This document shows, piece after piece, positions 2,572 through 47,404 of a DNA stretch of 60,715 bases. The stretch's first letter is position 1, and every line of letters begins with the position of its first letter. Source of the stretch: Gemmatimonadales bacterium (lineage in GTDB: Bacteria; Gemmatimonadota; Gemmatimonadetes; Palauibacterales; Palauibacteraceae); NCBI GenBank assembly GCA_037385645.1, contig JARRMU010000024.1:1-60715 (forward strand), given 5' to 3'. The position numbers and the translations under genes were made by a program. The notes beneath the pieces are model-generated. The model had not been told where the DNA came from. It did not search any database and was given only the letters and a program-made list of their open reading frames with translations.

Positions 2572-2695
2572 ATTCCCGACGGCCGGTATCAGGGCGGAAG
2601 GGGCTCGCAGGCGTGGATCGCCGCCTCACGCCACCACTTTACCGCTCTGCAAAGCGGCCGGAGACCTCGTGGACGTCCCCTGGCCCGGCGTCCAA

Positions 2696-3490: not shown

Positions 3491-3591
3491 CGCGTCACCT
3501 CCAAAGCCCAAAGGAAGGTCGCCGCCCGTCGAAAGTGGGCCGAAAGGGATACACCGGATATTCTCGAAAGTGCCGGCGGAGTCCGCTGCGC

Positions 3592-3900
3592 TCAGAGAGC
3601 GATCTGGAAGCTCTCCGGCAAGCCGCCTCGGCATGGAATCTCCTCGACCGAGACGACCCTCGCTTGGCGCGGGCCGGTCCGAATCCTCTCGATGAAGGCC
3701 TGAACTCGAGCGATCGGACCCGCCACGTGGATCTCCACCGAGCCGTCGGGAAGGTTCCTCACCGTTCCCCGCAGCGAAAGTTCCCCAGCTAGCTCTCGCG
3801 TCCACCACCGGAATCCGACGCCCTGCACGCGGCCGCGGATCAGCATGCCGCGGCGTGCCTCCTCGGGCGGGGCGTTGTCCAAGGTATCGTTGGCTATCAT
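3592..3900 (-). CDS. acyP: Acylphosphatase
   Basis: GRVQGVGFR and GTVRNLPDGSVE signatures. About 100 aa; start approximate. Confidence 0.93.
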   Translation of the reverse strand: MIANDTLDNAPPEEARRGMLIRGRVQGVGFRWWTRELAGELSLRGTVRNLPDGSVEIHVAGPIARVQAFIERIRTGPRQARVVSVEEIPCRGGLPESFQIAL

Positions 3901-4026
3901 GGGACCCATTCTCGAGGTGCAAGGTAGTGCGATCGGCTGCGAACTGCGCGCATGCGGCGCGGAGGTCGGCCAGCCATATTCACGAGCGATCTGACCCGCA
4001 TCGGTGTCACGGTAATCTGGCGAGGC

Positions 4027-5952: not shown

Positions 5953-5997
5953 GCGTGCGAGCCGACGGGGGGCAGCCGGTCTGTTTGGCGGAGAAGA

Positions 5998-6013
5998 TGT
6001 TCCACGTGAAACA
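5998..6013. promoter_or_regulatory. parS site 1 (TGTTCCACGTGAAACA)
   Basis: Matches the 16-bp parS consensus TGTTNCACGTGAAACA; lies upstream of parAB. Confidence 0.93.
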
Positions 6014-6116
6014 CGCCCCGCGCGCGTACGCATCCGCGGGCGTTTCGCCCTCTCCTCGACCCCGCGGATGAGAGGGTTGTTCGGGTTAAGATCATGATAT
6101 CAAGGCACATCGGTTG

Positions 6117-6125
6117 TTTTCCACA
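6117..6125 (+). promoter_or_regulatory. Possible DnaA box (TTTTCCACA)
   Basis: Matches TTWTNCACA between the two parS sites; only one copy seen. Confidence 0.4.
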
Positions 6126-6139
6126 AACGTGGAACGCTG

Positions 6140-6155
6140 TGTTCCACGTGGAACA
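6140..6155. promoter_or_regulatory. parS site 2 (perfect palindrome TGTTCCACGTGGAACA)
   Basis: Perfect 16-bp palindrome of parS type about 200 bp upstream of parA. Confidence 0.95.
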
Positions 6156-6351
6156 GTCTACGCTTGGCGCGGCTACCGACCCGGCTCTATATTGCCCCGT
6201 CCCGATCATCCGTCCTCAACCAAGCGGCGGTTTCAGCTGTCTTCGACTCGACACGATACGCGCGAATATGGCAGGGCAATCTCCCGCACTCGCTGTGGGC
6301 GATGGGCCATGAAGGCGCTGGAGCCCGCTGCTTGATCCCGCAGAGGAACGA

Positions 6352-7137
6352 ATGAGCCGGATCATCTCTATCGCCAATCAGAAGGGCGGTGTCGGGAAGA
6401 CCACGACGGCTATAAACCTCGGTGCTTCGCTCGCGATCGCGGAGCGACGGACCTTGGTGGTTGACTGCGATCCCCAAGGGAACGCGACCAGCGGCTACGG
6501 GATTCGCAAGAACGCAAGCAGGCCATCGGTTTACGAGTGCGTCGTCGAGGGAAAGCCGCTGTCTGACGCGATCCACCACGAGGTCCATTTTCCGTATCTG
6601 GACGTAGCCCCCGCGAGCAGAGACCTGGCGGGCGCCGAAGTGGAGCTCATGGAACGGCCCAACCGCAACCGGCGACTGCGGAGGGCCCTCGAGCCGATTC
6701 GCGGCTCGTACGACTACGTTCTTGTGGATTCACCGCCTTCGCTGGGCGTATTGACCCTGAATGCGCTCACCGCCTCGGATTCCGTCATCATACCCATTCA
6801 GTGCGAGTTCTACGCGCTCGAGGGACTGAGTCAGCTTCTTAACACCGTGCGTTTAGTGCAGCGTAACATCAACCAGGAGCTACAGATCGAGGGTGTGCTC
6901 CTCACGATGTACGATTCCCGCCTCAATCTGTCGAAGCAAGTGGCGGCCGAAGCCAGGGAGTATTTCGGTAGAAAGGTCTTCGACACCATGATACCGAGGA
7001 ACATCCGGTTGGCCGAAGCGCCGAGCTTCGGTAAGCCGATCGCCTTATACGACGTGCTTTCAACCGGAGCCCGTGGCTATCTGAGCCTCGCGAACGAACT
7101 GATCGAGCGCGACGAACCGACGAGGAAGGTTGGCTAA
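6352..7137 (+). CDS. parA: Chromosome partitioning ATPase ParA/Soj
   Basis: Deviant Walker A NQKGGVGKTTT, DPQGNAT, DSPPSLG, PRNIRLAEAPSFGKP. Confidence 0.97.
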   Translation: MSRIISIANQKGGVGKTTTAINLGASLAIAERRTLVVDCDPQGNATSGYGIRKNASRPSVYECVVEGKPLSDAIHHEVHFPYLDVAPASRDLAGAEVELMERPNRNRRLRRALEPIRGSYDYVLVDSPPSLGVLTLNALTASDSVIIPIQCEFYALEGLSQLLNTVRLVQRNINQELQIEGVLLTMYDSRLNLSKQVAAEAREYFGRKVFDTMIPRNIRLAEAPSFGKPIALYDVLSTGARGYLSLANELIERDEPTRKVG

Positions 7138-33477: not shown

Positions 33478-33782
33478 TCATGCCGAGAGCCGGTGCGTCA
33501 GCCTGAAGTAGCGGTCCAGCCATCGTGTCGATCGATCGGTCAGCTTCCCCCCGGTAGTGCATATCAGCCGCTCTCCGAATTCCTTCGCTCATAGTCGGGT
33601 ATGGATGGATCAGCGTCGAGAGGGCGGCGTTCCGAGTCCGTGACGCATGGCGAGCGCGCCCTCCATGTCCGGATCTCTCCGTGCTGGTCCCTCGCCTCCT
33701 CCTCCGTCAAACCCACCCGGGCGAGCGGAGGATCCGTGAAGACCGCCCAGGGGACCACAGAGTAGTCCACCGCCGGCCGAAG
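33478..33782 (-). pseudogene. Remnant of a pyridine nucleotide-disulfide oxidoreductase (mercuric reductase/Lpd-like) C-terminal domain
   Basis: Successive segments with frame changes between them: VDYSVVPWAVFTDPPLARVGLTEEEAR / LAMRHGLG / LIHPYPTMSEGIRRAA..HYRG / KLTDRSTRWLDRYF*. The FAD/NAD domains are absent. Confidence 0.8.
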
Positions 33783-33821
33783 TCACCAGGCCGTCCGTCC
33801 GTCCGCCGAGGCGTCTCGCGA

Positions 33822-35342
33822 TTACAGCTCGAGGAAGCACCACTCCCTCGTTGCGGGAGTCGTTCCCATCTGCAAGCCCGCGTCGCGCGAGACGAGGATG
33901 TTGTTGGAGTGGTTGAAGCCAAAGCCGTTTTCCGGATCGTAGAGACCGGGCTCGTTCGAGAAGTGCATGCCCTCACGCATCAGGGTGTAGTCACCGAGGG
34001 CCTGATAGGGCGGCTGGTGCCCTTCCATGCCCTCTCCGTGGCCGGGCCGATGGTAGATGAGGTGCTCCACGCCGTTCTCGACCTGATAGTCGTGGACGGC
34101 CTTGGCGACGTTCGAGCACGTGTTGCCTGCGTAGGATTCCTCCGCCTGGATCTCGTAGCAGCGGGTGTGTACGTCCCACACGCGCTCCTGCCACTCCGTC
34201 CATGGGGAGATCAGGAAGGAGCGATACAGCTCTCCCCCGTATCCGCCTACCCTGACGACCCCGGCGATCTGCAGCGCGTCACCGGGCTCGACTTTCTTCC
34301 AGAACATCTGGTTCGGGTGGGGATACGCCGTGGTGCGGCCGGTGCGGCAGCCGACGCCGACCGAGATGCCGACGGCATCGTGCGGCACGCCTGTCTGCGG
34401 GATTTCGTCCATGATCCGTGCCGTGCCCCAGAGGCGGGCCGCGTTGGCGATTTCCCAATCCACGGCCTCCGTTCCCCGCTCGAGCAGGTAGTCGCGTGCG
34501 AACGCGTGGATCTCCGACCAGAAATCCATCGCACGCTGGGTGAGCCGGCTCTCCGCCTCGTCCTTGACGATCCGGCTCCGGATCATGATGTCGTTGATGT
34601 CGACGAAACTGGCGTCTGGCATGACGGCGGCCATCTGCCCGAAAGCTCCGCTCTCCGGACGCTTGCTCTCGGGGGTCTCGATCACGCCCCACATGTCCAG
34701 CCGCGCGACACTTTCCTGGCCCGGGAGGACGCCGATCTCCGCGAGCCCGCTTCCATCGACCCCGATCGTTCCGCTGCCGTAGCCGAGCTCGCCGAGCGTC
34801 TCTCCCCACCACCTGTAGAGATTGACGGTGTCGCCCTGGAGGACCTCGCCCCGGCTGGGGAAAGCGCCGCGCGCGTGATGGTAGTCGAAGTAATAGCTGG
34901 ACCGAGTCGTCCACCAATCGTTGACGAGCTGTTGGTCCAGGTAGGGGTTGAGCCAGATGAGCGCGTCGTCGTCATCCATCGGAAGGAAGCAGGCAAACGG
35001 TCGCTCGGTCGTCGAGTGGAACAGGCCCGTGGCGTAGATGATGTTCCACCTCCGGGTCAGGAAGAGGCCGCTGTCGACACCTCGTTTCCTCGCCTCGCTC
35101 TTCAGCTCCCGGATCTTCGCCTTGTACCAGGAGAGCGGAAGGCGATGAAAGTCGGCCGGCTCCGGCAGCTCGGGCCGGCGGGCTCGCTGCTCTCGACGCA
35201 GCAGCTCGAAGCTGTCGGCTCGGCCCTCGGCCCGCGCCATCGCGCGTTCGTCCGGCCAGAGCGCGGGTGGGCCGATGATGGCCGCTCCGGCCAGACCGCT
35301 TCCTGAGGCTGAAACGAAATCGCGGCGGCTCCAGCGCTGCAT
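33822..35342 (-). CDS. Tat-exported M24-fold (Xaa-Pro peptidase/creatinase-like) protein
   Basis: SRRDFV Tat motif, RIVKDEAE, HRPGHGEGMEGH, NEPGLY. Confidence 0.85.
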   Translation of the reverse strand: MQRWSRRDFVSASGSGLAGAAIIGPPALWPDERAMARAEGRADSFELLRREQRARRPELPEPADFHRLPLSWYKAKIRELKSEARKRGVDSGLFLTRRWNIIYATGLFHSTTERPFACFLPMDDDDALIWLNPYLDQQLVNDWWTTRSSYYFDYHHARGAFPSRGEVLQGDTVNLYRWWGETLGELGYGSGTIGVDGSGLAEIGVLPGQESVARLDMWGVIETPESKRPESGAFGQMAAVMPDASFVDINDIMIRSRIVKDEAESRLTQRAMDFWSEIHAFARDYLLERGTEAVDWEIANAARLWGTARIMDEIPQTGVPHDAVGISVGVGCRTGRTTAYPHPNQMFWKKVEPGDALQIAGVVRVGGYGGELYRSFLISPWTEWQERVWDVHTRCYEIQAEESYAGNTCSNVAKAVHDYQVENGVEHLIYHRPGHGEGMEGHQPPYQALGDYTLMREGMHFSNEPGLYDPENGFGFNHSNNILVSRDAGLQMGTTPATREWCFLEL

Positions 35343-36283: not shown

Positions 36284-37654
36284 TCATCTCTCAGCGCCCG
36301 GAGGCGTGGAGGAGGAGCAGAGGTATACGCCGGGGATCGGGGTGGCGTACGGGTCGCGCTTGGGAAAGGGCCTCGCCAGGGTCTGCCGCAGCGTGTTGGC
36401 GCCGCCCGCGATGTCGCCGCCGATGTAGTTCGCGTTCAGGGCGGTGAGGCCGGCCGGCCGGAGCATGCTTCTCGCTAGGATGCAGTCCCTGAACCCCGGC
36501 GCAAAACGCTCGACCTGGGACTCGATCCGTTCCGTCATATCAACATCGCTGCCATGCGGTACGTGGCAGTAGGCCCATCCCGTGTGCTTTCCCGCCGGAG
36601 CTCGAGACGGGTCGAACAAGCTCTGCTGGGCGAGAAGGACGAACGGCCGCTCCGGGACACGACCCTCCCAGGCTTGGCGCTCCGCCTCCGAGATCTCGTC
36701 GAAGGTGCCTCCGACGTGGACGGTACCCGCCCGGCTGCAGGCGGCGGCGGTCCACGGGATGGGGTCGCTCAACGCCCAGTCCAGCTTGAAGGCGCCCGGT
36801 CCGTACCGATAGCGCGAGAGGCGCCTCCGGTAGCGCGGAGGGAGTTCCTCCCCTGCGAGCGCCAGGAGCTGCTTGGGGGTTACCGACAGGAGCTTGATGG
36901 CACCCTCCGGCAGATCCTCGAGAGCCTCGACCGGTCGCGTCGTGACGATCTCGCCGCCCAACGAACGCAGCACGGAGATGAGGCCATCGGCCAGTCGTTG
37001 GGATCCTCCCTCCGGAAACGGCCAGCCGACGACGTGCCCCAAGGAGCCGAGTACAAGCGCGATGGCCGCGCTCGGGCGCATCTCCAACGGGATCACGGAG
37101 TGTCCCGCCAGGCCGGCGAGCAGGGCTCGGCCCCGGATTCCCTCGAAGGAGCGCGCCAGGCCGCGGGCGGACCGAAGTCCGCGCAGCCCGAAGCGCGAGA
37201 AGCCAACGGGATGCCGCGGCACCCTTATCGGAGCCAGAAGGTCGTTCGCCAGCTCGTCCCATTTCTCGACGAGCGGGTCGAGCAGGCGGCGGTAGGCCTG
37301 TCCGTCGGAGCCGAGCCCCGCCGCGGTCTCCGCCAGCGAGCGTTCCAGCACGACGGCCGAGCCATCGTCCAACGGATGGGCGAGTGGCGCCTCCGGTTGT
37401 ATCCAGCGGACGCCATGCGCTTCCAGGTCCAGGCCGCGAAACAAGGGCGACGCAAAGCCGAGAGGATGGATCGCCGAGCAGACGTCGTGACGGAAGCCGG
37501 GGAGAGTGAGCTCGGCGCTACGCAGGCCGCCTCCCGCCGTGTCGCTCGCCTCGATCACCGCTACGTCGCGGCCCGCCTGAGCGAGCACGATAGCGGCGGC
37601 CAGCCCGTTGGGCCCCGAGCCTACAACGACATACTCTTGTCCGGGCCGATTCAT
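36284..37654 (-). CDS. Phytoene dehydrogenase-like FAD oxidoreductase (C-terminus apparently truncated)
   Basis: VVGSGPNGLAAA, HDVCSAIHP, WAYCHVP, GGDIAGG. Ends SSSTPPGAER instead of the family's PPGGGVHGMCG motif. Confidence 0.88.
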   Translation of the reverse strand: MNRPGQEYVVVGSGPNGLAAAIVLAQAGRDVAVIEASDTAGGGLRSAELTLPGFRHDVCSAIHPLGFASPLFRGLDLEAHGVRWIQPEAPLAHPLDDGSAVVLERSLAETAAGLGSDGQAYRRLLDPLVEKWDELANDLLAPIRVPRHPVGFSRFGLRGLRSARGLARSFEGIRGRALLAGLAGHSVIPLEMRPSAAIALVLGSLGHVVGWPFPEGGSQRLADGLISVLRSLGGEIVTTRPVEALEDLPEGAIKLLSVTPKQLLALAGEELPPRYRRRLSRYRYGPGAFKLDWALSDPIPWTAAACSRAGTVHVGGTFDEISEAERQAWEGRVPERPFVLLAQQSLFDPSRAPAGKHTGWAYCHVPHGSDVDMTERIESQVERFAPGFRDCILARSMLRPAGLTALNANYIGGDIAGGANTLRQTLARPFPKRDPYATPIPGVYLCSSSTPPGAER

Positions 37655-37735
37655 CCGTCGGTCATCCGATTGCCGCGACCTCTTGCCTCGGGTAGCTTCC
37701 CGTGCTCCGCTCTGCCATCGGAAAGGTCACACGTC

Positions 37736-38738
37736 ATGCACGTTTTCGCTAAGTGCGAGAACTTCACCACCTCCCGAGAGCTCCGAGCGATCGGCCTGTA
37801 TCCGTACTTTCAGCCAATCGAGGAGTCGTGCGACACAACCGTCGTGATCAACGGTGAGCGAAAGGTGATGGTGGGGTCCAACAACTACATGGGCCTCACG
37901 CACGATCCGCGCATCCTCGAGGCGGCCAGAGACGCTCTGAACCGGTACGGCAGCGGCAACACGGGTAGCCGCTTCCTGAACGGCAACCTGGATCTCCACG
38001 ATCGGCTTGAGCACGAACTGGCCGCTTTCGTCGGCAAGGAAGCGGCGCTGGTCTTTTCCACGGGTTACCTCACCAACCTGGGGACTCTCTCGGCTTTGGT
38101 CGCTCGGAACGATACGGTCTTCGTGGACAAGCTCGACCACGCCTGCATCCAGGACGGAGCCCGATTGGGCTTTGGCCGGGTCCAACGCTTCAAGCGTCGT
38201 CGGCCCAGATGGCAACGGGACGGCGGCTCACTTCGGCCTGACCGACGAGGTGGATCTGATCACCGGCACCTTCTCGAAGTCGTTCGCCTCGATCGGCGGG
38301 TTCGTGGCCGGCACCGACACGATCTGCGAATACCTTCGCAACAACGCGCGCGCCCTCATTTTCAGCGCAAGCATGCCTCCGACGGCCGTTGCCACGGTGC
38401 TCAAGGCCCTGGAGATCATCCGCGAGGAGCCGGAGCGACGCGAGCAGCTGTGGAAGAACACCCGGAAGATGATGGAGGGCTTTCGCACCATCGGCTTCGA
38501 GATTGGGCCGACCGCGACGCCGATCATACCGGTGCTGGTCGGTCCGATGGACAAGACCTTCCGGTTCTGGCGGGAGCTGTTCGACGCCGGCGTCTTCACG
38601 AATCCGGTCGTGCCGCCCGCCGTCCCCGAGGGAAGTTGCCGCCTCCGGACGAGCTACATGGCCACTCACACCGACGAGCAACTGGACTTCGTCCTCGAGT
38701 GCATCGAGAGGATCGGCAGGAAGCTCCAGGTGGTGTGA
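37736..38738 (+). pseudogene. spt: Serine palmitoyltransferase (alpha-oxoamine synthase), split by an internal deletion/frameshift near 38195
   Basis: N half GLYPYF, GSNNYMGL, GSRFLNG.LDLH, DKLDHA. C half in another frame: HFGLTDEVDLITGTFSKS, IFSAS, NPVVPPA, MATH. The HND...DDAH block is missing. Confidence 0.85.
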
Positions 38739-38798
38739 CGCGCCCGCACCCGCCGACGCCGCGCATGCACCAGGCGGCCTGACCCGGCCTCGAATCAG

Positions 38799-39929
38799 AT
38801 GAGCGGCGTCCTCTCCGTGCTTCCCGTGTCACCGCGCAGCGATGGCATGGAGGCGTTCATCCGCCTCCCGTGGTCCATTTACGAAGGCGACGACGTGTGG
38901 GTGCCGCCCCTACTGCGAGACATGCGGACGATGATGGATCCGCAGCGGCACCCGTTTTACGAGCACTCCGAGGTTCAGGCATTCCTGGCCCTTAGGGACG
39001 GCCGCCCGATCGGCCGAGTCGCGGCCATCCACAACCGGCGTCACGTCGAGTTTCAGGGCGAAAGCACGGGCTTCTTCGGCTTCTACGAGTGCGCCCGCGA
39101 CGAGGAGGCGTCGTCCGCCCTCCTGGACGCGGCGGCCGGCTGGCTCCGGGAGCGTGGGCTGAAGGCGATGCGCGGCCCGGCGAGCTTCTCCACCAATGAG
39201 CAGGCCGGTCTGCTCGTGGAGGGTTTCGAGGATCCGCCGGCGGTGATGATGCCGTACAACCCACCCTACTACGCCGAGCAGCTTGAGACGTACGGCCTCG
39301 AGCCTGCCAAGACGCTGGTTGCCTACTTCCTGCACGGCGAGGCAGCGCCCGAGTACCTCGTGCGCGCGGCCGGCCTCGTCGAGCGGCGCACCGGCGTGCG
39401 GGTTAGGTCGCTCAGCATGCGTGAATTCTCGCGGGACCTTGAGATCATTCGTGATCTCTACAACTCCGCCTGGGAGAGGAACTGGGGGTTCGTCCCCATG
39501 ACCGACGCCGAGATCGACCATATGGCGAAGGAGCTGAAGCCCGTCGTCGATCCGAGGCTGACGCTCATCGCCGAGGATGCGGAGAACCGGCCGGTCGGGT
39601 TCGCCCTCGCGCTTCCGGATTTCAATCAGGTGCTGAAGCACCTGAACGGGCGACTTTTCCCGTTCGGAGTGCTGAAGGCGTTGTGGCTGCGCCGAAAGAT
39701 CGACCGGCTGCGCGTGCTGACTCTGGGAGTGGGCCCCGATTACAGGGGGAAAGGGTTGGATGCCCTCTTCTACCTCGGGATCTTTCGGGGCGGCAACTCG
39801 CAGGGGATCCTGCAGGGAGAGTTCTCCTGGGTACTCGAGGACAACGTGCTGATGCGCAGGGCGCTCGAGAGGATGGGGGCGCACGTGTACAAGCGCTATC
39901 GACTCTACGAGACGCCGCTTCGGCGATGA
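38799..39929 (+). CDS. GNAT-fold acyltransferase, bacterial ceramide synthase (bCerS/YghO-like)
   Basis: FIRLPWSIY...WVPPL, GRVAAIHN, GFFGFYE, RGP..FSTNEQ.GLLVEGF, MPYNPPYY, WGFVP, SWVLEDN. Directly follows spt. Confidence 0.85.
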   Translation: MSGVLSVLPVSPRSDGMEAFIRLPWSIYEGDDVWVPPLLRDMRTMMDPQRHPFYEHSEVQAFLALRDGRPIGRVAAIHNRRHVEFQGESTGFFGFYECARDEEASSALLDAAAGWLRERGLKAMRGPASFSTNEQAGLLVEGFEDPPAVMMPYNPPYYAEQLETYGLEPAKTLVAYFLHGEAAPEYLVRAAGLVERRTGVRVRSLSMREFSRDLEIIRDLYNSAWERNWGFVPMTDAEIDHMAKELKPVVDPRLTLIAEDAENRPVGFALALPDFNQVLKHLNGRLFPFGVLKALWLRRKIDRLRVLTLGVGPDYRGKGLDALFYLGIFRGGNSQGILQGEFSWVLEDNVLMRRALERMGAHVYKRYRLYETPLRR

Positions 39930-40882
39930 GCCTCGGACGAACTCTCGTAACCGGTGCCACCGGCTTTCTCGGCAGCCACGTGGCGGCTGCGTGGGTTGAG
40001 GCCCGTCACGACGTGCGCTGCACGCTGCGCGCGACCAGCGACGAGCGCTGGCTGGAGAGCCTGGACGTGGAGTCGGTGGAGTGGGATGTGCGCGATACGG
40101 AGGGCTTGAGGACGGCCCTCCGAGACATCGATACGGTGGTTCACGTAGCCGGTGTGACCCGCGCTCCGCGAAGGCCCGACTACTTCCAGGTGAACGCCGC
40201 CGGCTCGGCCCGACTCGCCGAAGCGGCCGTCAAGGCGGGCGTCTCGCGGTTCGTGCTGGTCAGCAGCCTCGCCGCGCGCGGACCGGACGGAGGGGACGGT
40301 CCGGTGAGCGCCTACGGGCAGAGCACGCGACGGGGCGAAGATCTCGTCCGGCTCTTCGAGGAGAAGATGGAGATCGTAATCCTCCGGCCCGGTGGCATCT
40401 ACGGGCCCCGCGACTCGGATCTCTTCCCCCTGTTCGAGATGGCCGACAAGGGTTGGCTGGTAGCGCCGGCGGGCAGCCCCCCGTTGCAGCCGGTGTATGT
40501 GAGCGACGTCGCCCGACTGACGGTGGCGGCAGGAACGGAGGCGTACGCCGGGCTCGGCCCGTATCCCGTCGCCGAGGAGGGCGAGTATCGCTGGCAGGAG
40601 GTGCGCGACGGTCTGGCGTCGGCCCTCCGCCGGCGCGTCCGGATGGTCTGGCTGCCGAAAACGGCCTTCATAATGGCCGGTGTGATGGCCGAGACCGCGG
40701 CCCGACTGACCCGAAAGGATCCTCCGCTGGACCGGAGAAACGCGGTCGATCTGAGCCGGCACGGCTGGACCTGTGACACGACGCCGACGCGCGACGCCTT
40801 CGGCTGGGAGGCCCAGGTTCGACTCCCCGATGGCCTCGCGCTGACGGCGGAGTGGTACCGACGGGTCGGATGGCTGAAGTGA
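39926..40882 (+). CDS. Extended SDR, candidate oxidized-ceramide reductase (CerR-like)
   Basis: VTGATGFLG, HVAG, VSSLAA, YGQS, RPGGIYGPRD. ATGA overlap with the GNAT gene. The role is inferred from context. Confidence 0.8.
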   Translation: MSLGRTLVTGATGFLGSHVAAAWVEARHDVRCTLRATSDERWLESLDVESVEWDVRDTEGLRTALRDIDTVVHVAGVTRAPRRPDYFQVNAAGSARLAEAAVKAGVSRFVLVSSLAARGPDGGDGPVSAYGQSTRRGEDLVRLFEEKMEIVILRPGGIYGPRDSDLFPLFEMADKGWLVAPAGSPPLQPVYVSDVARLTVAAGTEAYAGLGPYPVAEEGEYRWQEVRDGLASALRRRVRMVWLPKTAFIMAGVMAETAARLTRKDPPLDRRNAVDLSRHGWTCDTTPTRDAFGWEAQVRLPDGLALTAEWYRRVGWLK

Positions 40883-41728
40883 TGGAGCGAGAGCGCCAGG
40901 GGACGGGCCTGCTGGCGATCGACTACGTGGCGATCGGTTACGCGGCGCTGACCGGTGCGCTGTCGTTGGCCGGCGGCCTCAAAGGGGTGGCGTTCGCCGC
41001 CGTCCACGGCTTGGTGATCTTCTTGATCGTCAAGATGTCGCGACGGCCACCCGGTGATCGCGACGCCCCTCCTCTACCACGAGCTTTCATATCTGAACCA
41101 GTTCGTGGTTACGGGCTTCTTCGATCCGATCGTGCAGAGATGGGAGGTGGCGGTCTTCGGATCGCAGATCAGCCAGGAAGCCGCCGGCTGGTTTCCGGCG
41201 CTCTGGCTCTCCGAGTTCATGACGGTCGGCTATCTGACCTATTATTTCGTGATTCCGCTGCTGGCCATCGGGGCCTGGGCATGCTGCGGAAGAGCCGGGT
41301 TTCACCGTATCGGGGTGACGGTCGCACTGGCGTTCGCCGTCTGCTACACATGGTTTATCCTGTTTCCGGTCATGGGCCCGCGCTACTGGTACGGAGCGCT
41401 CGAGGGCGCGCTGTCGGAGGGAAGTATCTATCACTTCGCGCGCGAGCTGCTTGCGGGCGGCTCCTCCAAGGGCACGGCGTTCCCCAGCTCGCACGTCGCC
41501 GGGACGTGCGCCGCCTGGTTCGCGGCCGCGCGTGAGGATGAGCGCGCGTTCTTCCTGGCTGCCGTCCCGGTGGTGACCCTCACACTCGGCACCGTCTGGG
41601 CAGGTTTCCACTACGCGATCGACGCTGCGGCAGGGCTCATGATCGCGTGGGTTGCGTTCGCCGTGGCTCCCCGGCTCACTGCCTGGGCTCCGCTTCCCGA
41701 TGAGTCCTCGGCTTCCGACGCTCCGTAG
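40882..41728 (+). pseudogene. PAP2 / Aur1 (inositol phosphorylceramide synthase)-like membrane phosphotransferase, frameshifted near 41050
   Basis: TGATG coupling to the SDR. N-terminal TMs in one frame; remainder PLLY.EL, PVMGPRY, AFPSSH, HYAID in another (41054-41728). Confidence 0.78.
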
Positions 41729-41791
41729 AGCGTGAGCACAGCGCCGACCATATTTGTGTAAGATCGTGACTCGTCTGAAGAGGACTCGACA

Positions 41792-42100
41792 ATGCCGGCA
41801 CTCGAGCTACTGGCCCCAGTGATCGTGACGGTCACCCTGATCCTGATGATCGGGGCCGTCATCCTGCTCAGGCCACTTTCCAAACAGGGCGCGGCCCTCC
41901 TCGAGCAGATGCTGAAGGACCGCCGGGAGGGTAGGGCAGCGGAGGATATGGAGCGCCTGACCTCTGCAATGGCAAATCTTTCGGAGCGTATGCGACTGCT
42001 GGAGGATCGGCAGAGCTTCACGGAGTCACTCATCGAGGCGAGCCCCGAAAGCCGCGGGCGCATCGCCGAGCACGTCGGGCTGGCGTCTTCGGAGGAATGA
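41792..42100 (+). CDS. Small single-pass membrane protein with coiled coil
   Basis: GAGGA RBS, one TM helix, LSERMRLLEDRQSFTESL. Confidence 0.7.
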   Translation: MPALELLAPVIVTVTLILMIGAVILLRPLSKQGAALLEQMLKDRREGRAAEDMERLTSAMANLSERMRLLEDRQSFTESLIEASPESRGRIAEHVGLASSEE

Positions 42101-42182
42101 ACTCGCCAGTTCGCGGCGGATTCTCGGGCAACCATCGGGCACCGCCAGGCGTCGAAACAGCGGACCAAAGAAAAGGACTCGG

Positions 42183-42737
42183 GTGGAAGAGCGGGCACTC
42201 GTAGACCGCGCCAAGGCCGGCGACCGGAACGCGATGAGTCACCTGTACGAGGCTCATTCGCGGCGCGTGTACGCCGTCGTCAGGCGACTGGCGGGGGATG
42301 ATGATCTGGCGGCTGATCTGTCGCAGGATGCGTGGGTGAGAGCGTTCGAACGCCTCCACCTTTATCGCGGAGACGCGGCGTTCGGGACGTGGATCCATCG
42401 CCTGGCGACGAACGTTGCGTTGAACCGGCTTCGGCGGCGAACGAAGAGGCCGGACGTCGAGCGTTCTGCGGTTGGGATGCGCTCGTACGACAAACCATCC
42501 GACGAAGCCGTGATCAGCCGTCGGATGTTGACGGAGGCGCTGGATAGAATGCCTGAGGGATACAGACGCGTGCTCGTTCTGCACGATGTCGAAGGTTGGA
42601 CGCACGACGAGATCGGAGAGTCGCTGGGCATCGCGCCCGGTACTTCCAAGTCACAGCTGCACAAGGCGAGGGCGCGGATGCGCGCGCTGATCGCACCGAC
42701 CGCCATCGCCGGCGAAACGGGGAACAGCCTGCAATGA
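42183..42737 (+). CDS. ECF RNA polymerase sigma factor
   Basis: Region 2 DLSQDAWVRAF...FGTWIHRLATN; region 4 VLHDVEG...EIG..LG...GTSKSQLHKAR. Confidence 0.95.
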   Translation: MEERALVDRAKAGDRNAMSHLYEAHSRRVYAVVRRLAGDDDLAADLSQDAWVRAFERLHLYRGDAAFGTWIHRLATNVALNRLRRRTKRPDVERSAVGMRSYDKPSDEAVISRRMLTEALDRMPEGYRRVLVLHDVEGWTHDEIGESLGIAPGTSKSQLHKARARMRALIAPTAIAGETGNSLQ

Positions 42738-43435
42738 GTGATACGACGTCAGAGCACCTCACGCTCGAGATGATCTCGGCACTGCTCGAAGAGCCGGAGG
42801 AGCACGAGGAGTCGGCGGCCCACCTGGCGGTCTGCGAGGTTTGTAGCGTGGAGCACTCGCGCATGCGCCGAATGCTCATGGCGCTCTCGGGTCTCGGGGA
42901 GATGCAACCGCCGGTCGACGAATGGGAACGGATAGAGGCCAAGCTCGCACACGAAAGGGGTGTGCTGCCCTTCAGGCGGATCGGCCTCTTCACCGGTTGG
43001 CCCGTCCAGGCGGCGGCGGCGATGCTCGTCTTCGCGGGCGGCATTGCGGCCGGCCTCGTTCTCACAGGCGGTCCGTCGCGTGACGCCACACAGGTAGCCG
43101 GAAGCGAGCGGCTCCAGTACGTCGGAGACGCGGTTGCGAGCGGTCCCGAGACAGCGTCTCCATTCCTTTCGAGTCAGTACTACGAGGCCGTTGCCCAGCT
43201 CGAGAGCCTTAGAGCTCGACCGGTGAACTCCGAAGATCTCATCGAGAATCCCGCGGCCGCGACGGAGCGTCTCGCGCGACTGGATGCTCTCATCCTCGCT
43301 TCTCGCGAAGCGCTTGCGAACTCGCCGACGGATCCGGCAATCAACAACCTTCTCTTCGAGTTGATCGAAGAGCGGGACGACATGGCAGAGGGCCTCGAGG
43401 GAGCGGTTCGCCTGGCGGGGCTGGAGTATCGATAG
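42734..43435 (+). CDS. Zinc-binding (ZAS) anti-sigma factor
   Basis: ATGA overlap with the sigma gene, HLAVCEVC (HxxxCxxC), one TM helix, extracytoplasmic tail. Confidence 0.85.
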   Translation: MSDTTSEHLTLEMISALLEEPEEHEESAAHLAVCEVCSVEHSRMRRMLMALSGLGEMQPPVDEWERIEAKLAHERGVLPFRRIGLFTGWPVQAAAAMLVFAGGIAAGLVLTGGPSRDATQVAGSERLQYVGDAVASGPETASPFLSSQYYEAVAQLESLRARPVNSEDLIENPAAATERLARLDALILASREALANSPTDPAINNLLFELIEERDDMAEGLEGAVRLAGLEYR

Positions 43436-43471: not shown

Positions 43472-44692
43472 ATGCGGAAGTCAAGCTCAAGCTTCGTGCG
43501 GTGCGGGATCGCGGTCGGGCTGGGGGTCATTCCGGTCCTGACGGGCTCGGCCCCCCTTCTCGCGCAGCAGCCCTCGCCCGAGGATGCTCCGAGCGCGCCA
43601 GACGCGCCTAGGCAGGCGCCAGCAGTTCGGCAGGACGGAAAGCCGTGGCTCGGGGTCGGACTCGAGACTCGTCAGGAGTGCCGTCCCGACGCGGAGGAAG
43701 ACTGCCGGGTCATCGTCCTCATTAGGTCCGTCGTTGTCGGGAGCCCGGCCGAGGCCGCAGGGGTCGAGGTTGGCGACATGGTCGTATCGTTGGATGAAGC
43801 CGCGCCGGGAAGCGCCGAGTTCCGTGCTCATCTGGACGGCATGGAGGTCGGGAAGCCGGTGGTCATGAAGGTCACTCGGGCGGGACGGCCGGTCTCGATC
43901 GACGTGGTGCCGGCGCCGCGTCCGCCGAAACCGATGCACGTGAGAGCCCGACCACCTGTTCGAACGTGGACGACGGATGATGGCGAGATTGAGGTGAAGG
44001 TCCCGATCGTCATCGAGCCCGAGGGTGCGCCGGAAGGGCCCGGCTGGGTGTATCGAAGCGATAGCGACAAGGGATTCGTCGTCGTCGTCCCGAGCGAGGA
44101 TGGCTGGCGAGTCCAGGTCTTCAGCGAGGATGCGGAGGGTCAGGCCGAGCTGGAGGAGGCGCTCAAGAAGCAAAACATCGAGCTCCGCGAGCTCGAGCAG
44201 CAAATGGAGAACGTGGAGGAAGAAGCGACGGCGGCTGTCCGAGAGCAGGCCCGGTACTGGGGCCGGGTGAAGGCGGAATTGGGTCCCGAGATGGCGGCTC
44301 TGCGCGACTCCGTCCTGGCCGAAGCCCGCGCGAAGCTCGCGGAGGTGAGAAAGGCCAGGCAGGCCTATCGAACTGCTGAAAGGGCCCGCTACGCACCGCC
44401 CGCCCATCTGGTCGAGGCCACCCGGCGCATAGCGGGCGCGGAGTTCGAGCCGCTCGGACCTGAGCTCCGCCACGAAGGCCTGGAGCAGGGCTTGTTGGTC
44501 CTTCGCGTGATTTCTGGAACGCCGGCGTGGGATCTCGGCCTCCGGCGTGGTGACGTGGTCACGGAGGTGGCGGGCGCCGAGTGCAGGGAGGTGTCGGACC
44601 TCCGGGCGGCACTCCTCAAGCGCGGCGAGGAGAGCGTCACCGTCAAGTGGGTCCGGAACGGCGAGTCCATGACGGGCACCGTCGACGATTAG
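43472..44692 (+). CDS. Exported protein with two PDZ domains
   Basis: Signal peptide, WLGV...GSPAEAAGVEVGD and GTPAWDLGLRRGDVV PDZ motifs around a coiled coil. No protease motif seen. Confidence 0.85.
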   Translation: MRKSSSSFVRCGIAVGLGVIPVLTGSAPLLAQQPSPEDAPSAPDAPRQAPAVRQDGKPWLGVGLETRQECRPDAEEDCRVIVLIRSVVVGSPAEAAGVEVGDMVVSLDEAAPGSAEFRAHLDGMEVGKPVVMKVTRAGRPVSIDVVPAPRPPKPMHVRARPPVRTWTTDDGEIEVKVPIVIEPEGAPEGPGWVYRSDSDKGFVVVVPSEDGWRVQVFSEDAEGQAELEEALKKQNIELRELEQQMENVEEEATAAVREQARYWGRVKAELGPEMAALRDSVLAEARAKLAEVRKARQAYRTAERARYAPPAHLVEATRRIAGAEFEPLGPELRHEGLEQGLLVLRVISGTPAWDLGLRRGDVVTEVAGAECREVSDLRAALLKRGEESVTVKWVRNGESMTGTVDD

Positions 44693-44822: not shown

Positions 44823-45965
44823 ATGGATAATCCCACAGCCGCAGAAGACGCATTGGCGGCGCTCGACCACCTCGGCGAGGAGCTGAAGGGCGCGTTCCGG
44901 AGCTGGGAGGAGCATCCCGAGCCTTGGACCGATGAGCGGGTGGACGAGCTCGCTCGTCGATCCTTCAACCTCCAGCTCCAGGGCAACGCGCCCTATCGGC
45001 GCTACTGCCGACAGCTGGGCATCGAGTCCGACCAGGTGGGCGGTTGGCGGGACGTCCCGGCCGTGCCGACCGCGGCCTTCCGGGAGGCCACGCTGATGGT
45101 CGGCGATCCCGGAGATGCCGTCCTCGAGTTCCATACCAGCGGCACCAGTCGAGGCAAGCGCCGCCGAGGTCGCCACCTCGTGCGCGATCCGGCGCTCTAC
45201 CGCTCTTCGCTCGAGGCGACGTTCTCCCGCTTCGTGCTGCACCGCGCGAACGACGAATCGGTGTCGCGGCGTCCGATCGGCTCGCTGGTTCCATCCTTCA
45301 TCGATTCCCCGCACTCCTCGCTCTCCTGGATGGCCGATGCGGTGATCGGCCGCTTCGGAGCGCGCGCTTCCCGCTTCCTCGCCGGGCCGGAGGGCGTGGA
45401 CTGGGAGGACGCGAAGCGTTTCGTCGTCGTCGCCGCGTCGGAGGAGGAAGCCGTCGGCCTCTTCGGCACCACGCTCGCGTTCGACGAATGGACTCGACGC
45501 CTGGAGGCCAGCGACTTCCGAATCGGGCTGCCCGCCGGATCCTTCGTGATGGACACCGGCGGCTCGAAGGGCCTGGAGACGTCGGCTCGCGAGGATCTTC
45601 TGGAGCGCGTCCACCGTTGCCTCGGTGTACCTTCGAGCGCCGTCGTCAACGAGTTCGGGATGACCGAATTGCTCTCCCAGCGTTATGGAACACCTGCGGC
45701 GCTGGTCGGCCCTCCCTGGCTGCGGAGTCGTGCGCTCGATCCCGTGACCCTCGAGGAGCTGCCAGCTGGAGAGGTCGGCGTTCTGGCGCACTTCGATCTG
45801 GCGAACGTGGGGAGCGTGTGCAGCGTGCTCACGGAGGATCTCGGCGCGGTCGAAGGCGGCGCGGTCAGGTGGGTCGGCCGCACGCCCGGATCGCCGCCTC
45901 GCGGCTGCTCGCTGGCCACGGAGGAGTTGCTGCGCTCACAGGAGGCCGGGGGGACGAATCCGTGA
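44823..45965 (+). CDS. LuxE-family acyl-protein synthetase
   Basis: VPAVPT.AF, TSGT, DTGGSKG, EFGMTELLSQ, DLAN, TEDLG, C-terminal GR...PRGCS acylated Cys. Confidence 0.88.
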   Translation: MDNPTAAEDALAALDHLGEELKGAFRSWEEHPEPWTDERVDELARRSFNLQLQGNAPYRRYCRQLGIESDQVGGWRDVPAVPTAAFREATLMVGDPGDAVLEFHTSGTSRGKRRRGRHLVRDPALYRSSLEATFSRFVLHRANDESVSRRPIGSLVPSFIDSPHSSLSWMADAVIGRFGARASRFLAGPEGVDWEDAKRFVVVAASEEEAVGLFGTTLAFDEWTRRLEASDFRIGLPAGSFVMDTGGSKGLETSAREDLLERVHRCLGVPSSAVVNEFGMTELLSQRYGTPAALVGPPWLRSRALDPVTLEELPAGEVGVLAHFDLANVGSVCSVLTEDLGAVEGGAVRWVGRTPGSPPRGCSLATEELLRSQEAGGTNP

Positions 45966-47404
45966 CGATAGGCGTGTCGCCCGAGAAGGTCTTCCATCTG
46001 CCGGGGCTCGATCCGGGGAGCTCTGCAGACAGCTCCGGATGGTACGAGGGTGTGACCGGCGCGGGCCTCCGGTTTCGCTCGCCCAGACTGACGGTTGCCG
46101 GCGCGTCGCGCGTCGCGGATCACGTCCGCGCCGCCGCGCTCGAAGCACGTCGGGAACGGACGCTCGCGCAAGTGGTGAAGGCCGTGGCCGGAGCCGCGGG
46201 TCGGCTGGTGGATTCCGCCTCCGACGTAGACGGCGACGCGGTCCAAACCCTGGCTGATGAGCTGGGATGGCCAGCGTCGCTGGCGCGAGAGACGTTGCTG
46301 GAGATGGGTGAGATCTGGACCGAGGAGTCGCTCTGGGACGTGCTGCGTTCGGAACTGGCGGACCCCGACGTGCTCGACGGATTCCGTCCCGGAGGGGCCG
46401 GCCGTCAGCGACGGGCCGCCGGGCATCCTCTGCTGCTGCAGGTCATGGCCGGCAACGTGCCCGGGGTCGCCGTCACCGGGGTGATGAGGGCGCTGCTCTG
46501 CCGCTCGGGAGTGCTCGTCAAGCTGCCCGAGGTCGAGCCCGGCCTAGTCGTCCTCTTCGCTCGCCTGCTGGCCGAGGCCGACCCGGCGCTCGGGGCCTGC
46601 GTGGCGGCCGCGTGGTGGCCGGCGGATCGGGAGGGACCGATTTGGGATGAATGGACCACACGGGCAGGTACCGTCGTCGTCTACGGGGGAGATGAGGCTG
46701 TGGCCGGGGTCCGAGACCGTGTCCGGGGCCACCAGCCGGTTGTGGCATACGGTCCGAAGCTGGGAGTCGCCGTCCTGCTCTCCGGCGCCGACTCGGGTCC
46801 TGCGGCGTCCGCTCTGGCCCGCGACATATGTGCCTACGAGCAGATGGGCTGCGTGTCCCCTCGACTGGTCCTCGTTCAGGGTCCAGTGGCGCCGTTCGCG
46901 GACGCGCTCGGCGCCGCGCTGGCCGAAGAGACTCATAGGATTCCGCGTCCGCCGTTGCGGGCCGACGAGGCGTTGGCGATTCGAGCGCTTCGGGCCGAGA
47001 TCGAATTCCGCGGCTATGAAGACGGCGGCAGTCGCGTGATCGGGCGACCTGAAGACCTGTCGTGGACGGTGCTGCTCGACGACCAACCCGTGCTCGAGTT
47101 CGATTCCTTGCCGCGAGTCGTCCGCTTGAGCGGCTTCGGGTCCATCTCGGATCTTCGGGAAGCCCTGCAGCCGCTCGGCGGACGGGTACAGGCGATCGGC
47201 TATGCTGGCGACGAGGATGGTCTTTCATCGCTCGCCGAGGCCGCCGTCGATCTCGGCGTTAGCCGCATGGCACCCCTCGGGTGCATGGCCTGGCCGCCGG
47301 CGGACTGGCGGCACGACGGCAGATTCCAGCTGCTTCCGCTGCTCGCATGGACAGAGTGGGAAGGTGGCCAAACGGGATCGGGCGCCCGGCGCCGCGCCGA
47401 TTGA
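45962..47404 (+). CDS. LuxC-family acyl-CoA reductase
   Basis: GTGA overlap with the LuxE-like gene; AGNVP, YGGDEAV, YGPKLG, YEQMGCVSP catalytic Cys, WRHDG. Confidence 0.88.
   Translation: MTIGVSPEKVFHLPGLDPGSSADSSGWYEGVTGAGLRFRSPRLTVAGASRVADHVRAAALEARRERTLAQVVKAVAGAAGRLVDSASDVDGDAVQTLADELGWPASLARETLLEMGEIWTEESLWDVLRSELADPDVLDGFRPGGAGRQRRAAGHPLLLQVMAGNVPGVAVTGVMRALLCRSGVLVKLPEVEPGLVVLFARLLAEADPALGACVAAAWWPADREGPIWDEWTTRAGTVVVYGGDEAVAGVRDRVRGHQPVVAYGPKLGVAVLLSGADSGPAASALARDICAYEQMGCVSPRLVLVQGPVAPFADALGAALAEETHRIPRPPLRADEALAIRALRAEIEFRGYEDGGSRVIGRPEDLSWTVLLDDQPVLEFDSLPRVVRLSGFGSISDLREALQPLGGRVQAIGYAGDEDGLSSLAEAAVDLGVSRMAPLGCMAWPPADWRHDGRFQLLPLLAWTEWEGGQTGSGARRRAD

Follow-up and report, generated by a model that had tools for sequence, protein, structure and literature searches.

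A marsh Gemmatimonadales bacterium probably possesses an intact, translationally coupled four-gene operon that would direct the synthesis of a phosphosphingolipid, inositol phosphoceramide being its likeliest product. This proposal is drawn from comparisons of sequence, modelled fold and gene context and includes the reading that the defects present in the window (the whole stretch of 60,715 nucleotides analysed here, which stems from a Gemmatimonadales MAG) are an artefact of the record or a rare variant. In the predicted pathway, close homology suggests that a serine palmitoyltransferase (Spt) would join serine and an activated fatty acid to 3-ketodihydrosphingosine, which, as fold and conserved adjacency indicate, would then be N-acylated by a bCerS-like tandem-GNAT enzyme. 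An NDUFA9-like SDR is predicted to reduce the 3-keto group via a Tyr/Lys pair. Finally, judging from fold, catalytic triad and operon context, a PAP2_3 protein may take a phospho-alcohol from a glycerophospholipid by way of a phospho-histidine intermediate, using His222, His261 and Asp265 (numbering of the near-identical database protein P0007), and may pass the head group on to the C1 hydroxyl of ceramide with release of diacylglycerol. The likeliest donor would be phosphatidylinositol, which would yield inositol phosphoceramide as with Bacteroides BT_1522 and yeast Aur1 and could be provided by two neighbouring genes of the same genome, one for a CDP-alcohol transferase and one for inositol-phosphate synthase (MIPS).

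Gene layout and defects of the deposited copy

A sequence-only reading had described four co-oriented genes at 37736-41728, the last three of them translationally coupled, together with the motifs GLYPYF, GTFSKS, GPRY, AFPSSH and HY..D. All of this was recovered from the open reading frames and their translations (Table 1). Genes 2 and 3 overlap in ATGA (39926-39929) and genes 3 and 4 in TGATG (40880-40884); an alternative in-frame ATG for gene 4 at 40870 is the start of P0007. While the family assignments for the four-gene set stood, genes 1 and 4 proved frame-broken and the lysine of gene 3 replaced, none of which had been mentioned.

Table 1. Features of the four-gene region in the window.
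Feature	Coordinates	Strand	Basis
Gene 1 (Spt-like), N-terminal part	37736..38193	+	Frame of ATG 37736; 196.8 bits to NF047600, positions 7-155; has GLYPYF
Gene 1 break, 179 nt absent from window, frame shift	38193..38194	+	Relatives L016-L020; contigs of 4/4 runs
Gene 1, C-terminal part	38196..38738	+	Next frame; 230.9 bits to NF047600, positions 216-394; GTFSKS and stop codon
Gene 2, bCerS-like tandem-GNAT N-acyltransferase, 376 aa, intact	38799..39929	+	ORF, PF00583, structure model
Gene 3, NDUFA9-like extended SDR (CerR-like), 318 aa, open frame	39926..40882	+	ORF, solved relatives
Gene 3 codon 134, ACG (Thr) at the Lys position of YxxxK	40325..40327	+	Runs and 55 homologues
Gene 4 (Aur1-like PAP2_3), N-terminal part	40870..41050	+	Start at ATG 40870 or ATG 40882; 100% identity to P0007 residues 5-59
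Gene 4 break, 41 nt absent from window, frame shift	41050..41051	+	Relatives L016, L017, L019; contigs of 4/4 runs
Gene 4, C-terminal part	41051..41728	+	Next frame; GPRY, PSSH His, HYxxD His and Asp; 99.1% identity to P0007 residues 74-299

The reading frame of gene 1 holds as far as about 38195 and shifts to the following one at 38196, and the two pieces of the gene leave about 60 positions of the 395-position Spt model uncovered. The gap of 179 nt is exact in all five aligned relatives and corresponds to about 60 codons including the DDAHS pyridoxal-phosphate site; this segment is present in the relatives and, judged by length, in four metagenome runs as well, whereas the window retains only the GTFSKS motif with the PLP-binding lysine. 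Gene 4 switches frame at about 41050, one frame starting at 40870/40882 and another leading to 41728. When compared with three relatives that align straight through, it lacks 41 nt, which costs 14 residues (P0007 residues 60-73) including the family-invariant Arg71. The third defect concerns codon 134 of gene 3, where the window reads YGQST while the lysine of the YxxxK motif is present in 55 of 55 homologues; it is the sole departure of gene 3 at columns that are at least 95% conserved.

Near-identical contigs from four out of four public marsh metagenome runs, originating from four studies, carry the additional 179 and 41 letters as well as an A at 40326, which turns the gene 3 codon into AAG (Lys). 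The comparison covers one long contig of 8-13 kb per run at a depth of 7-25. Restoring the 179 nt results in a gene 1 of 1182 nt (393 codons plus stop) matching the relatives, and restoring the 41 nt results in a gene 4 of 900 nt (299 codons plus stop) matching P0007. Since all four runs contain these letters and the lysine codon, the operon is very probably intact in the natural population, and since near-identical DNA in the runs is free of every one of the three defects, these most likely represent an artefact of assembly or record, or a rare variant, and not a property of the organism. Judged by its sequence, the window copy as given is nevertheless unable to encode the pathway: with a 179-nt gap, a 41-nt gap and threonine in place of the catalytic lysine it contains three disabling differences, and the claim that this very copy encodes ceramide synthesis and head-group transfer had to be abandoned.

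In principle, the defects could also be real, in which case the window would represent a natural sphingolipid-null strain whose operon is decaying or selected for loss. The deposited assembly apparently holds the window sequence as given, the share of sampled words found in a listed run never exceeds 0.95, and the runs were compared as Logan contigs, from which rare variants are dropped, thus leaving room for a minority strain with all three defects. Still, we consider this explanation unlikely. Seven differences are common to all four runs; three of them are disabling and four synonymous, and one of the former strikes exactly the single catalytic lysine codon. Once a first knock-out was present, two further ones would have been unselected. 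Neither gap joint has letters shared across it. Furthermore, the remainder of the 47 kb aligning with the related genome G008 is free of frame-broken real genes: of 40 ORFs with a match, five were flagged as multi-frame, and these flags trace back to the two operon genes, two wrong-frame ORFs and one start overlap. Because none of the three disabling defects of the window copy recurs in independent assemblies, an intact homologue is preferable as experimental material.

Family assignment of the four genes

Profile comparisons support gene 1 as a Bacteroidota-type Spt, in agreement with its initial assignment. An intact homologue from the same genus scores 523 bits with NF047600 versus 391 bits with bioF and 359 bits with Kbl, the Spt model also ranking ahead of HemA; both window pieces reach their top score on NF047600, and the closest solved relative of the intact homologue is Sphingobacterium Spt (3a2b, a full-length match of 437.6 bits, compared with 291.7 bits for the next structure). 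The equivalog cut-off of NF047600, 640 bits, is reached in none of 41 genomes, with intact relatives scoring 480-550 bits and the window pieces 197 and 231 bits. Scores below the curated cut-off would also fit a BioF/Kbl paralogue in a cluster with a product other than a sphingoid base. This is very improbable, given that the Spt model is ahead by 132 bits over bioF and by 164 bits over Kbl, that the nearest solved structure is a bacterial Spt and that a true Kbl, the only other family member in the genome, is encoded elsewhere (511 bits versus a cut-off of 460), while no bioB in the genome reaches its cut-off. The linkage seen across many phyla with bCerS-like and SDR genes points in the same direction; it includes Myxococcus, a producer of ceramide phosphoinositol according to a citation in PMC9246714.

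For the bCerS family there is neither an NCBIfam model nor a specific Pfam model. Gene 2 matches PF00583 (E 1.5e-6), and its structure model (pLDDT 91.4) shows a tandem-GNAT fold with Foldseek E-values of 7e-14 to 1e-13 to tandem-GNAT acyltransferases. All conserved columns are kept, and three of the four runs show zero differences from the window. In 53 of 80 loci selected by their bCerS-like gene, those of Myxococcus and Corallococcus included, spt lies directly upstream. Modelled fold, GNAT family and spt adjacency together support the proposed bCerS-like identity. The product of gene 3 is an extended SDR that shows the Rossmann GxxGxxG motif; among solved structures, NDUFA9/NUEM-type subunits are closest to it. 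As CerR has been described as NDUFA9-like (PMC11087976), the sequence resemblance supports a CerR-like assignment; this part of the sequence-only reading holds for the family, while the window copy is devoid of the catalytic lysine.

Gene 4 reaches 59.1 bits with PF14378 (PAP2_3), for which the gathering cut-off is 27. When the structure model of P0007 (pLDDT 92.7) was searched with Foldseek, yeast Aur1 ranked first (9ivc_A, E 1.7e-4; 9vj4_A, E 2.4e-4), followed by BsPgpB (E 1.7e-2). VIA-align gave Z scores of 17.6 (253 aligned residues) and 17.1 for Aur1 and of at most 13.2 for PAP2 phosphatases. PSSH and HYxxD are kept in all 66 family sequences and align with PSLH and HYFVD (H294/D298) of Aur1, in which the His-His-Asp triad is essential (PMC13133130). 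These data support an Aur1-like fold and catalytic triad for the gene 4 product and are in line with its initial designation as an Aur1-type PAP2 protein. By sequence alone, the resemblance of the PAP2 protein to Aur1 falls short of significance (profile E 0.23).

It is conceivable that the PAP2 protein acts as a lipid phosphatase, with ceramide-1-phosphate, lipid A or a phosphorylated intermediate of the head group as substrate, for instance, and thereby trims a product instead of transferring a head group. The database name "phosphatase PAP2 family protein", the C2/C3 catalytic residues common to PgpB and LpxE, the position of LpxE as third-best structural match (Z 13.2) and the best raw profile E-values, which belong to PgpB (0.027-0.043), would all agree with such a role. 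We regard it as quite unlikely, because the phosphatases align only over residues ~96-290, the C-terminal core, whereas Aur1 covers residues 18-286 including the N-terminal helices, and because the FP.aGP.Y block of the family is of Aur1 type and pairs with FPAAPPWY of Aur1. K..RP and SR..H are the classical motifs of PAP2 phosphatases, and neither is seen in the family consensus. Tight coupling of the gene to the end of the ceramide operon likewise speaks against a phosphatase.

Distribution and the head-group question

Conservation of the gene order in related genomes, which had been suggested as a check, was found. Among 151 Gemmatimonadota genomes surveyed, 79 encode both Spt and the PAP2 protein, seven only Spt, three only PAP2 and 62 neither; for 70 of the 79 both genes reside on one contig at a spacing of 2.5-3.4 kb. 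The complete four-gene order occurs in 18 of the 80 bCerS-selected loci, i.e., in Gemmatimonadota, Sumerlaeota, Eisenbacteria, Latescibacterota and further MAGs. Synteny conserved both inside Gemmatimonadota and beyond thus supports a functional link between the four genes. The operon-linked PAP2_3 clade comprises some 1000 clusters with E-values of 1e-30 or lower. Our literature search returned no paper tying Gemmatimonadota to Spt or sphingolipid genes, consistent, though only in a narrow sense, with the view that the lineage is not known for sphingolipids. The novelty is tempered by Ding et al. 2024 (PMC11334938), who inferred, for MAGs from 38 phyla, Spt-like genes that have bCerS and CerR at the same locus; the main text of that paper does not name Gemmatimonadota.

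A CDP-alcohol transferase gene is located directly upstream of the MIPS gene in the same genome, on a contig other than that of the operon. MIPS is present in 142 of the 151 Gemmatimonadota genomes, and among distant genomes in four of five with an adjacent PAP2 gene and in four of five without. Because MIPS fails to mark operon carriers and is absent from G082, a 99% complete genome in which spt adjoins the PAP2 gene, inositol is one head-group option among others. Within the same pathway, the PAP2 protein could instead move phosphoethanolamine or phosphoglycerol from PE or PG and would then be a ceramide phosphoethanolamine/phosphoglycerol synthase. We treat this as a possibility of lesser weight than the inositol route. 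Besides the MIPS distribution and G082, it would accord with the location of the examined Bacteroidota homologues of the gene 4 protein outside inositol gene clusters and with the use of PE by SMSr, an enzyme of related fold (PMC13133130). Moreover, PE-dihydroceramide is unaltered upon deletion of BT_1522 in B. thetaiotaomicron, which implies a separate enzyme for that lipid (PMC9246714). On the other hand, the structure comes closest to that of PI-specific Aur1, SMSr reaching Z 10.4, and MIPS and the CDP-alcohol transferase are encoded in the genome studied here as well as in 78 of the 79 that combine Spt with PAP2. We retain phosphatidylinositol as the likeliest donor. Our more tentative suggestion is that the operon-linked PAP2_3 clade as a whole comprises stand-alone ceramide phospho-head-group transferases without a Kei1-like partner that use a non-inositol donor. 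If true, the clade would be the sought bacterial ceramide phosphoethanolamine/phosphoglycerol synthase, and Gemmatimonadota along with several operon-bearing candidate phyla would be major environmental sources of phosphosphingolipids.

The membrane lipids of Gemmatimonadota, a phylum frequent in soils and sediments, have been little studied. The conserved operon predicts ceramide-based phospholipids in much of the phylum, as the marker pair is found in 79 of the 151 sampled genomes. It also offers a compact and easily cloned set for testing bacterial head-group transfer onto ceramide, for which BT_1522 is the only characterised case found in the literature searched.

Comparison with known systems

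The bacterial ceramide pathway of Caulobacter crescentus is formed by Spt, bCerS and CerR (Stankeviciute et al. 2022, as cited in PMC11087976 and PMC11334938), and clustering of the three genes has been called common (PMC11334938). In both systems a genomic cluster encodes an alpha-oxoamine synthase together with a GNAT-type N-acyltransferase and an SDR resembling NDUFA9. In contrast to Caulobacter, Spt is here of the Bacteroidota/Sphingobacterium type, the operon comprises neither an acyl carrier protein nor an ACP synthetase gene, and a coupled fourth gene for the head group is present. A periplasmic location has been reported for CerR of Caulobacter (PMC11087976), whereas the SDR encoded here has no signal peptide obvious from its sequence. 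Both the Caulobacter phosphosphingolipid route (PMC11324152) and the one proposed here would end in an anionic phosphosphingolipid; the former begins with a ceramide kinase and involves further genes, whereas the operon contains nothing kinase-like.

With yeast Aur1, the catalytic subunit of IPC synthase (PDB 9ivc, 9vj4; PMC13133130), the gene 4 product shares a fold that extends along almost its entire length, as well as the His-His-Asp triad and the FP..P.Y block. Identity amounts to just 15-18%, however, the protein has about 300 residues compared with 401, and no gene for a Kei1-like partner is evident.

The claim that an Aur1-type route sets this organism apart from Bacteroides is contradicted by BT_1522, a published AUR1 homologue that makes inositol phosphoceramide and the deletion of which abolishes phosphoinositol dihydroceramide (Heaver et al. 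2022, PMC9246714). By its description, BT_1522 resembles the gene 4 product as a bacterial homologue of yeast AUR1 acting on ceramide, and the B. thetaiotaomicron genome likewise encodes MIPS and a CDP-alcohol transferase of the PIP synthase type. The arrangement differs: BT_1522 resides in an inositol-lipid cluster apart from spt, whereas in the Gemmatimonadales genome the PAP2 gene is part of the ceramide operon, with the inositol genes located on another contig.

Operon layout and defects of the window copy

Reading of the window frames located the four genes of the putative ceramide operon on the + strand and in the same orientation, as claimed by the sequence-only reading, and every motif quoted for them was found. 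Genes 2 and 3 are joined by ATGA, while genes 3 and 4 overlap in TGATG (40880), with a further in-frame ATG at 40870. Pfam assigns gene 1 to Aminotran_1_2, gene 2 weakly to GNAT, gene 3 to Epimerase/3Beta_HSD and gene 4 to PAP2_3 (59 bits versus a cut-off of 27). Scans of positions 37400-42300 returned no promoter-like sites (0.5 expected by chance) and three terminator-like sites (2.6 expected by chance).

Location of the operon, neighbouring genes and loci in other contigs and genomes
Feature	Location	Strand	Remark
Four co-oriented coding regions	37736-41728	+	Reading of window frames
Gene 2, 376 aa	38799-39929	+	Open frame
Gene 3, 318 aa	39926-40882	+	Open frame
ECF sigma factor, then probable anti-sigma protein without Pfam match	42183-43435	+	Directly downstream of operon
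Two-PDZ protein	43472-44692		Downstream of operon, after anti-sigma protein
LuxE-like acyl-protein synthetase (PF04443, E 2e-9), then LuxC acyl-CoA reductase (PF05893, E 1.4e-53)	44823-47404	+	3 kb downstream of operon
About 230 nt between M23 and M24 peptidase genes	33592-33822		
511-aa pyridine nucleotide-disulphide oxidoreductase between M23 and M24 peptidase genes	G008:C1 ~153150-154521 (L024 16962-18500)		Nearest genome (same genus)
CDP-alcohol phosphatidyltransferase (234 aa), then directly myo-inositol-1-phosphate synthase (MIPS)	G000:C20:3832-5929 (L116)		Window's own genome
Second, longer PAP2_3 paralogue, 390 aa, 81.5 bits	G000:C114:235-1407 (L117)		Window's own genome; adjoins ABC-transporter ATPase with TOBE domain
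Spt and PAP2 (family f5)	G082:C83:37037-40430		PAP2 start 2.5 kb after Spt start
spt, bCerS-like and SDR genes flanked by MMPL/sterol-sensing-domain transporter, MlaC and outer-membrane efflux protein	L070 298-10991		Myxococcus
PAP2 homologue beside two extended SDRs, Rce1-like protease and B12-binding radical SAM enzyme	L129 (G052:C16) 1906-7066		Bacteroidota MAG

Among the neighbouring genes, the LuxE-like/LuxC pair may form a fatty aldehyde or alcohol module. The interval between the M23 and M24 peptidase genes is about 1.1 kb longer in the nearest genome; the extra length may reflect a difference between species, or the window may lack a further stretch here.

In the window, genes 1 and 4 are each divided between two reading frames. 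Gene 1 is hit by the Spt model NF047600 in two parts, at positions 7-155 (197 bits) and 216-394 (231 bits), with about 60 positions absent. Exactly 179 nt are lacking between 38193 and 38194 when the window is compared with five relatives from the same genus and family, and 41 nt are lacking at about 41050 in comparison with three relatives that align straight through. Both losses shift the frame. Once restored, gene 1 comprises 1182 nt (393 aa) and gene 4 comprises 900 nt (299 aa), the same as in the relatives. An intact database protein, P0007 (299 aa), is identical to the N-terminal piece of gene 4 (100%) and almost so to its C-terminal piece (99.1%), and it bridges the gap with 14 residues, among them the family-invariant Arg71.

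Public marsh, salt-marsh and sediment metagenomes contain the 4.4-kb operon stretch in 20 runs (17 studies), with the share of its sampled words reaching at most 0.95 in any run. For four runs, each from a different study, the contigs were aligned to it. A single long contig (8-13 kb, at depth 7-25 and with 1-3 mismatches in each piece) spans the stretch in every one of them, and all four runs carry the 179 letters between 38193 and 38194 as well as 41 letters between 41050 and 41051. There are no shared letters at either joint. The window differs from all four runs in five bases, four of them synonymous. At the fifth, position 40326, the window reads ACG (Thr134 of gene 3) and all four runs read AAG (Lys). 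This residue is the lysine of the catalytic YxxxK pair of SDR enzymes, it is lysine in 55/55 homologous SDR genes of the loci compared, and it is the sole departure of the window from a column conserved to at least 95% in any of the four genes.

Over 47 kb the window aligns with the nearest genome (82-85% identity), and in this part no real gene besides those of the operon is frame-broken; other flags raised there proved to be wrong-frame ORFs or overlapping matches. Three of the seven differences between window and population are disabling and all three lie inside the operon, which is not expected of neutral drift. The defects may be an artefact of assembly or of the record, may come from a record that was altered, or may mark a rare strain with a degenerate operon, and a minority variant could escape the contigs. 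Whichever origin they have, the operon is intact in the organism as it is met repeatedly in nature, while the window copy is disabled in a manner that independent data do not reproduce. What the sequence-only reading observed is confirmed in part.

Assignment of genes 1 to 3

The decision between serine palmitoyltransferase and BioF/Kbl for gene 1 was made on the intact homologue in the nearest genome. The Bacteroidota-type Spt model gave the best score (523 bits versus 391 for bioF and 359 for Kbl), and the closest solved structure is Sphingobacterium Spt 3a2b (437.6 bits over the full length; the next reached 291.7). In addition, a separate true Kbl is encoded in the window's genome (511 bits; cut-off 460), where no bioB passes its own cut-off. 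Assignment of gene 1 as BioF/Kbl is therefore rejected.

For gene 2, the search of curated family models returned no matching family and a protein-atlas look-up yielded solely generic GNAT clusters. The predicted structure is that of a tandem-GNAT acyltransferase (pLDDT 91.4) and fits a predicted bacterial-type ceramide synthase. The best solved relatives of gene 3 are the NDUFA9/NUEM subunits of complex I, a likeness that agrees with the description of CerR in PMC11087976.

Relation of gene 4 to Aur1 and the putative head group

A single-sequence search of the PDB with the gene 4 PAP2 protein gave no matches and a profile search only weak ones. Structural likeness was judged on the model of P0007 (pLDDT 92.7, pTM 0.91). 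Foldseek ranked yeast Aur1 first (E 1.7e-4 and 2.4e-4, TM 0.53-0.60), followed by BsPgpB (E 1.7e-2). In VIA-align, Aur1 scored Z 17.6 and 17.1 over residues 18-286, as compared with Z 10.4 for SMSr and Z of at most 13.2 for PAP2 phosphatases, which aligned with the C-terminal core alone. The histidine of PSSH and the histidine and aspartate of HYxxD are invariant in 66/66 family members and align with PSLH and H294/D298 of Aur1, although the profile alignment (E 0.23) does not by itself reach significance. According to PMC13133130, Aur1 cannot make IPC without these three residues, and it forms a phospho-histidine intermediate. Gene 4 is thus Aur1-like in fold and catalytic triad. Its family is a large one, with 1023 cluster representatives matching at E 1e-30 or better, and is named in databases solely as 'phosphatase PAP2 family protein'.

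PMC9246714 describes a CDP-alcohol phosphatidyltransferase and an inositol-phosphate synthase as the phosphatidylinositol-making pair of Bacteroides and mycobacteria. The corresponding pair in the window's genome predicts inositol phospholipids on the basis of gene content, and its presence would make inositol phosphoceramide a feasible product of the operon. This evidence is not specific, because MIPS is near-universal, occurring in 41/41 relatives and 142/151 genomes of the phylum, and because among distant genomes it is found in 4/5 with an adjacent operon PAP2 and in 4/5 without one; MIPS presence was accordingly discarded as a test of the head group. Transfer of phosphoethanolamine or phosphoglycerol by the PAP2 protein is a serious alternative, with which the equal frequencies are in line. 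The same holds for G082, a 99% complete genome in which Spt adjoins PAP2 and no MIPS was found; its gene arrangement is a different one and speaks against inositol being obligatory as the head group. A BT_1522-like context was looked for around PAP2 homologues of four Bacteroidota MAGs and of one Myxococcus genome, and none of these homologues lies beside MIPS or a CDP-alcohol transferase. The cluster in one such Bacteroidota MAG (L129) is lipid-like.

Distribution and comparison with known systems

The nearest loci are titled as Gemmatimonadales or Gemmatimonadota MAGs. An Spt-like gene is present in 40/40 relatives of the genus, family and order, mostly in full length with 480-550 bits and in a few cases clipped by contig ends; none reaches the NF047600 cut-off of 640 bits. 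Each of the 40 also has a second, Kbl-like paralogue. We surveyed 151 Gemmatimonadota genomes, including the window's own and the unpublished G111 and G149, with thresholds of at least 450 bits for Spt-like genes and E 1e-20 or better for the operon type of PAP2. Both genes occurred in 79 genomes, Spt alone in seven, PAP2 alone in three and neither in 62; since related genomes are not independent, these counts are descriptive and carry no statistical test. Of the 79, 70 have both on one contig, with PAP2 at a distance of 2.5-3.4 kb from the Spt start. One stop codon falls within the matched range of several PAP2 hits from relatives.

Among 80 loci from many phyla, selected by similarity to gene 2, Spt is located directly upstream of the bCerS-like gene in 53. 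The full order Spt, bCerS-like, SDR, PAP2 is seen in 18, which are titled as Gemmatimonadota, Sumerlaeota, Eisenbacteria or Latescibacterota or bear titles without a name. In Myxococcus and Corallococcus, Spt, bCerS-like and SDR genes stand in a row that has MMPL, MlaC and outer-membrane-factor genes on its flanks, and a weak PAP2-like match is found 3.5 kb upstream. The Myxococcus locus L070 suggests combined sphingolipid synthesis and export.

In the main-text literature searched, we found no account of sphingolipid genes in Gemmatimonadota and no description of a ceramide operon whose fourth gene, coupled to the others in translation, is Aur1-like. That Spt, bCerS and CerR genes cluster is already published, and PMC11334938 infers, for MAGs of 38 phyla, Spt-like genes that have bCerS and CerR located alongside. 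The interpretation of the operon as encoding ceramide synthesis plus a headgroup transferase is supported in part. What does not stand is the claim that an Aur1-type route sets it apart from Bacteroides: BT_1522 of Bacteroides thetaiotaomicron is already reported, in PMC9246714, as a bacterial AUR1 homologue making phosphoinositol dihydroceramide, and the claimed contrast is therefore wrong.
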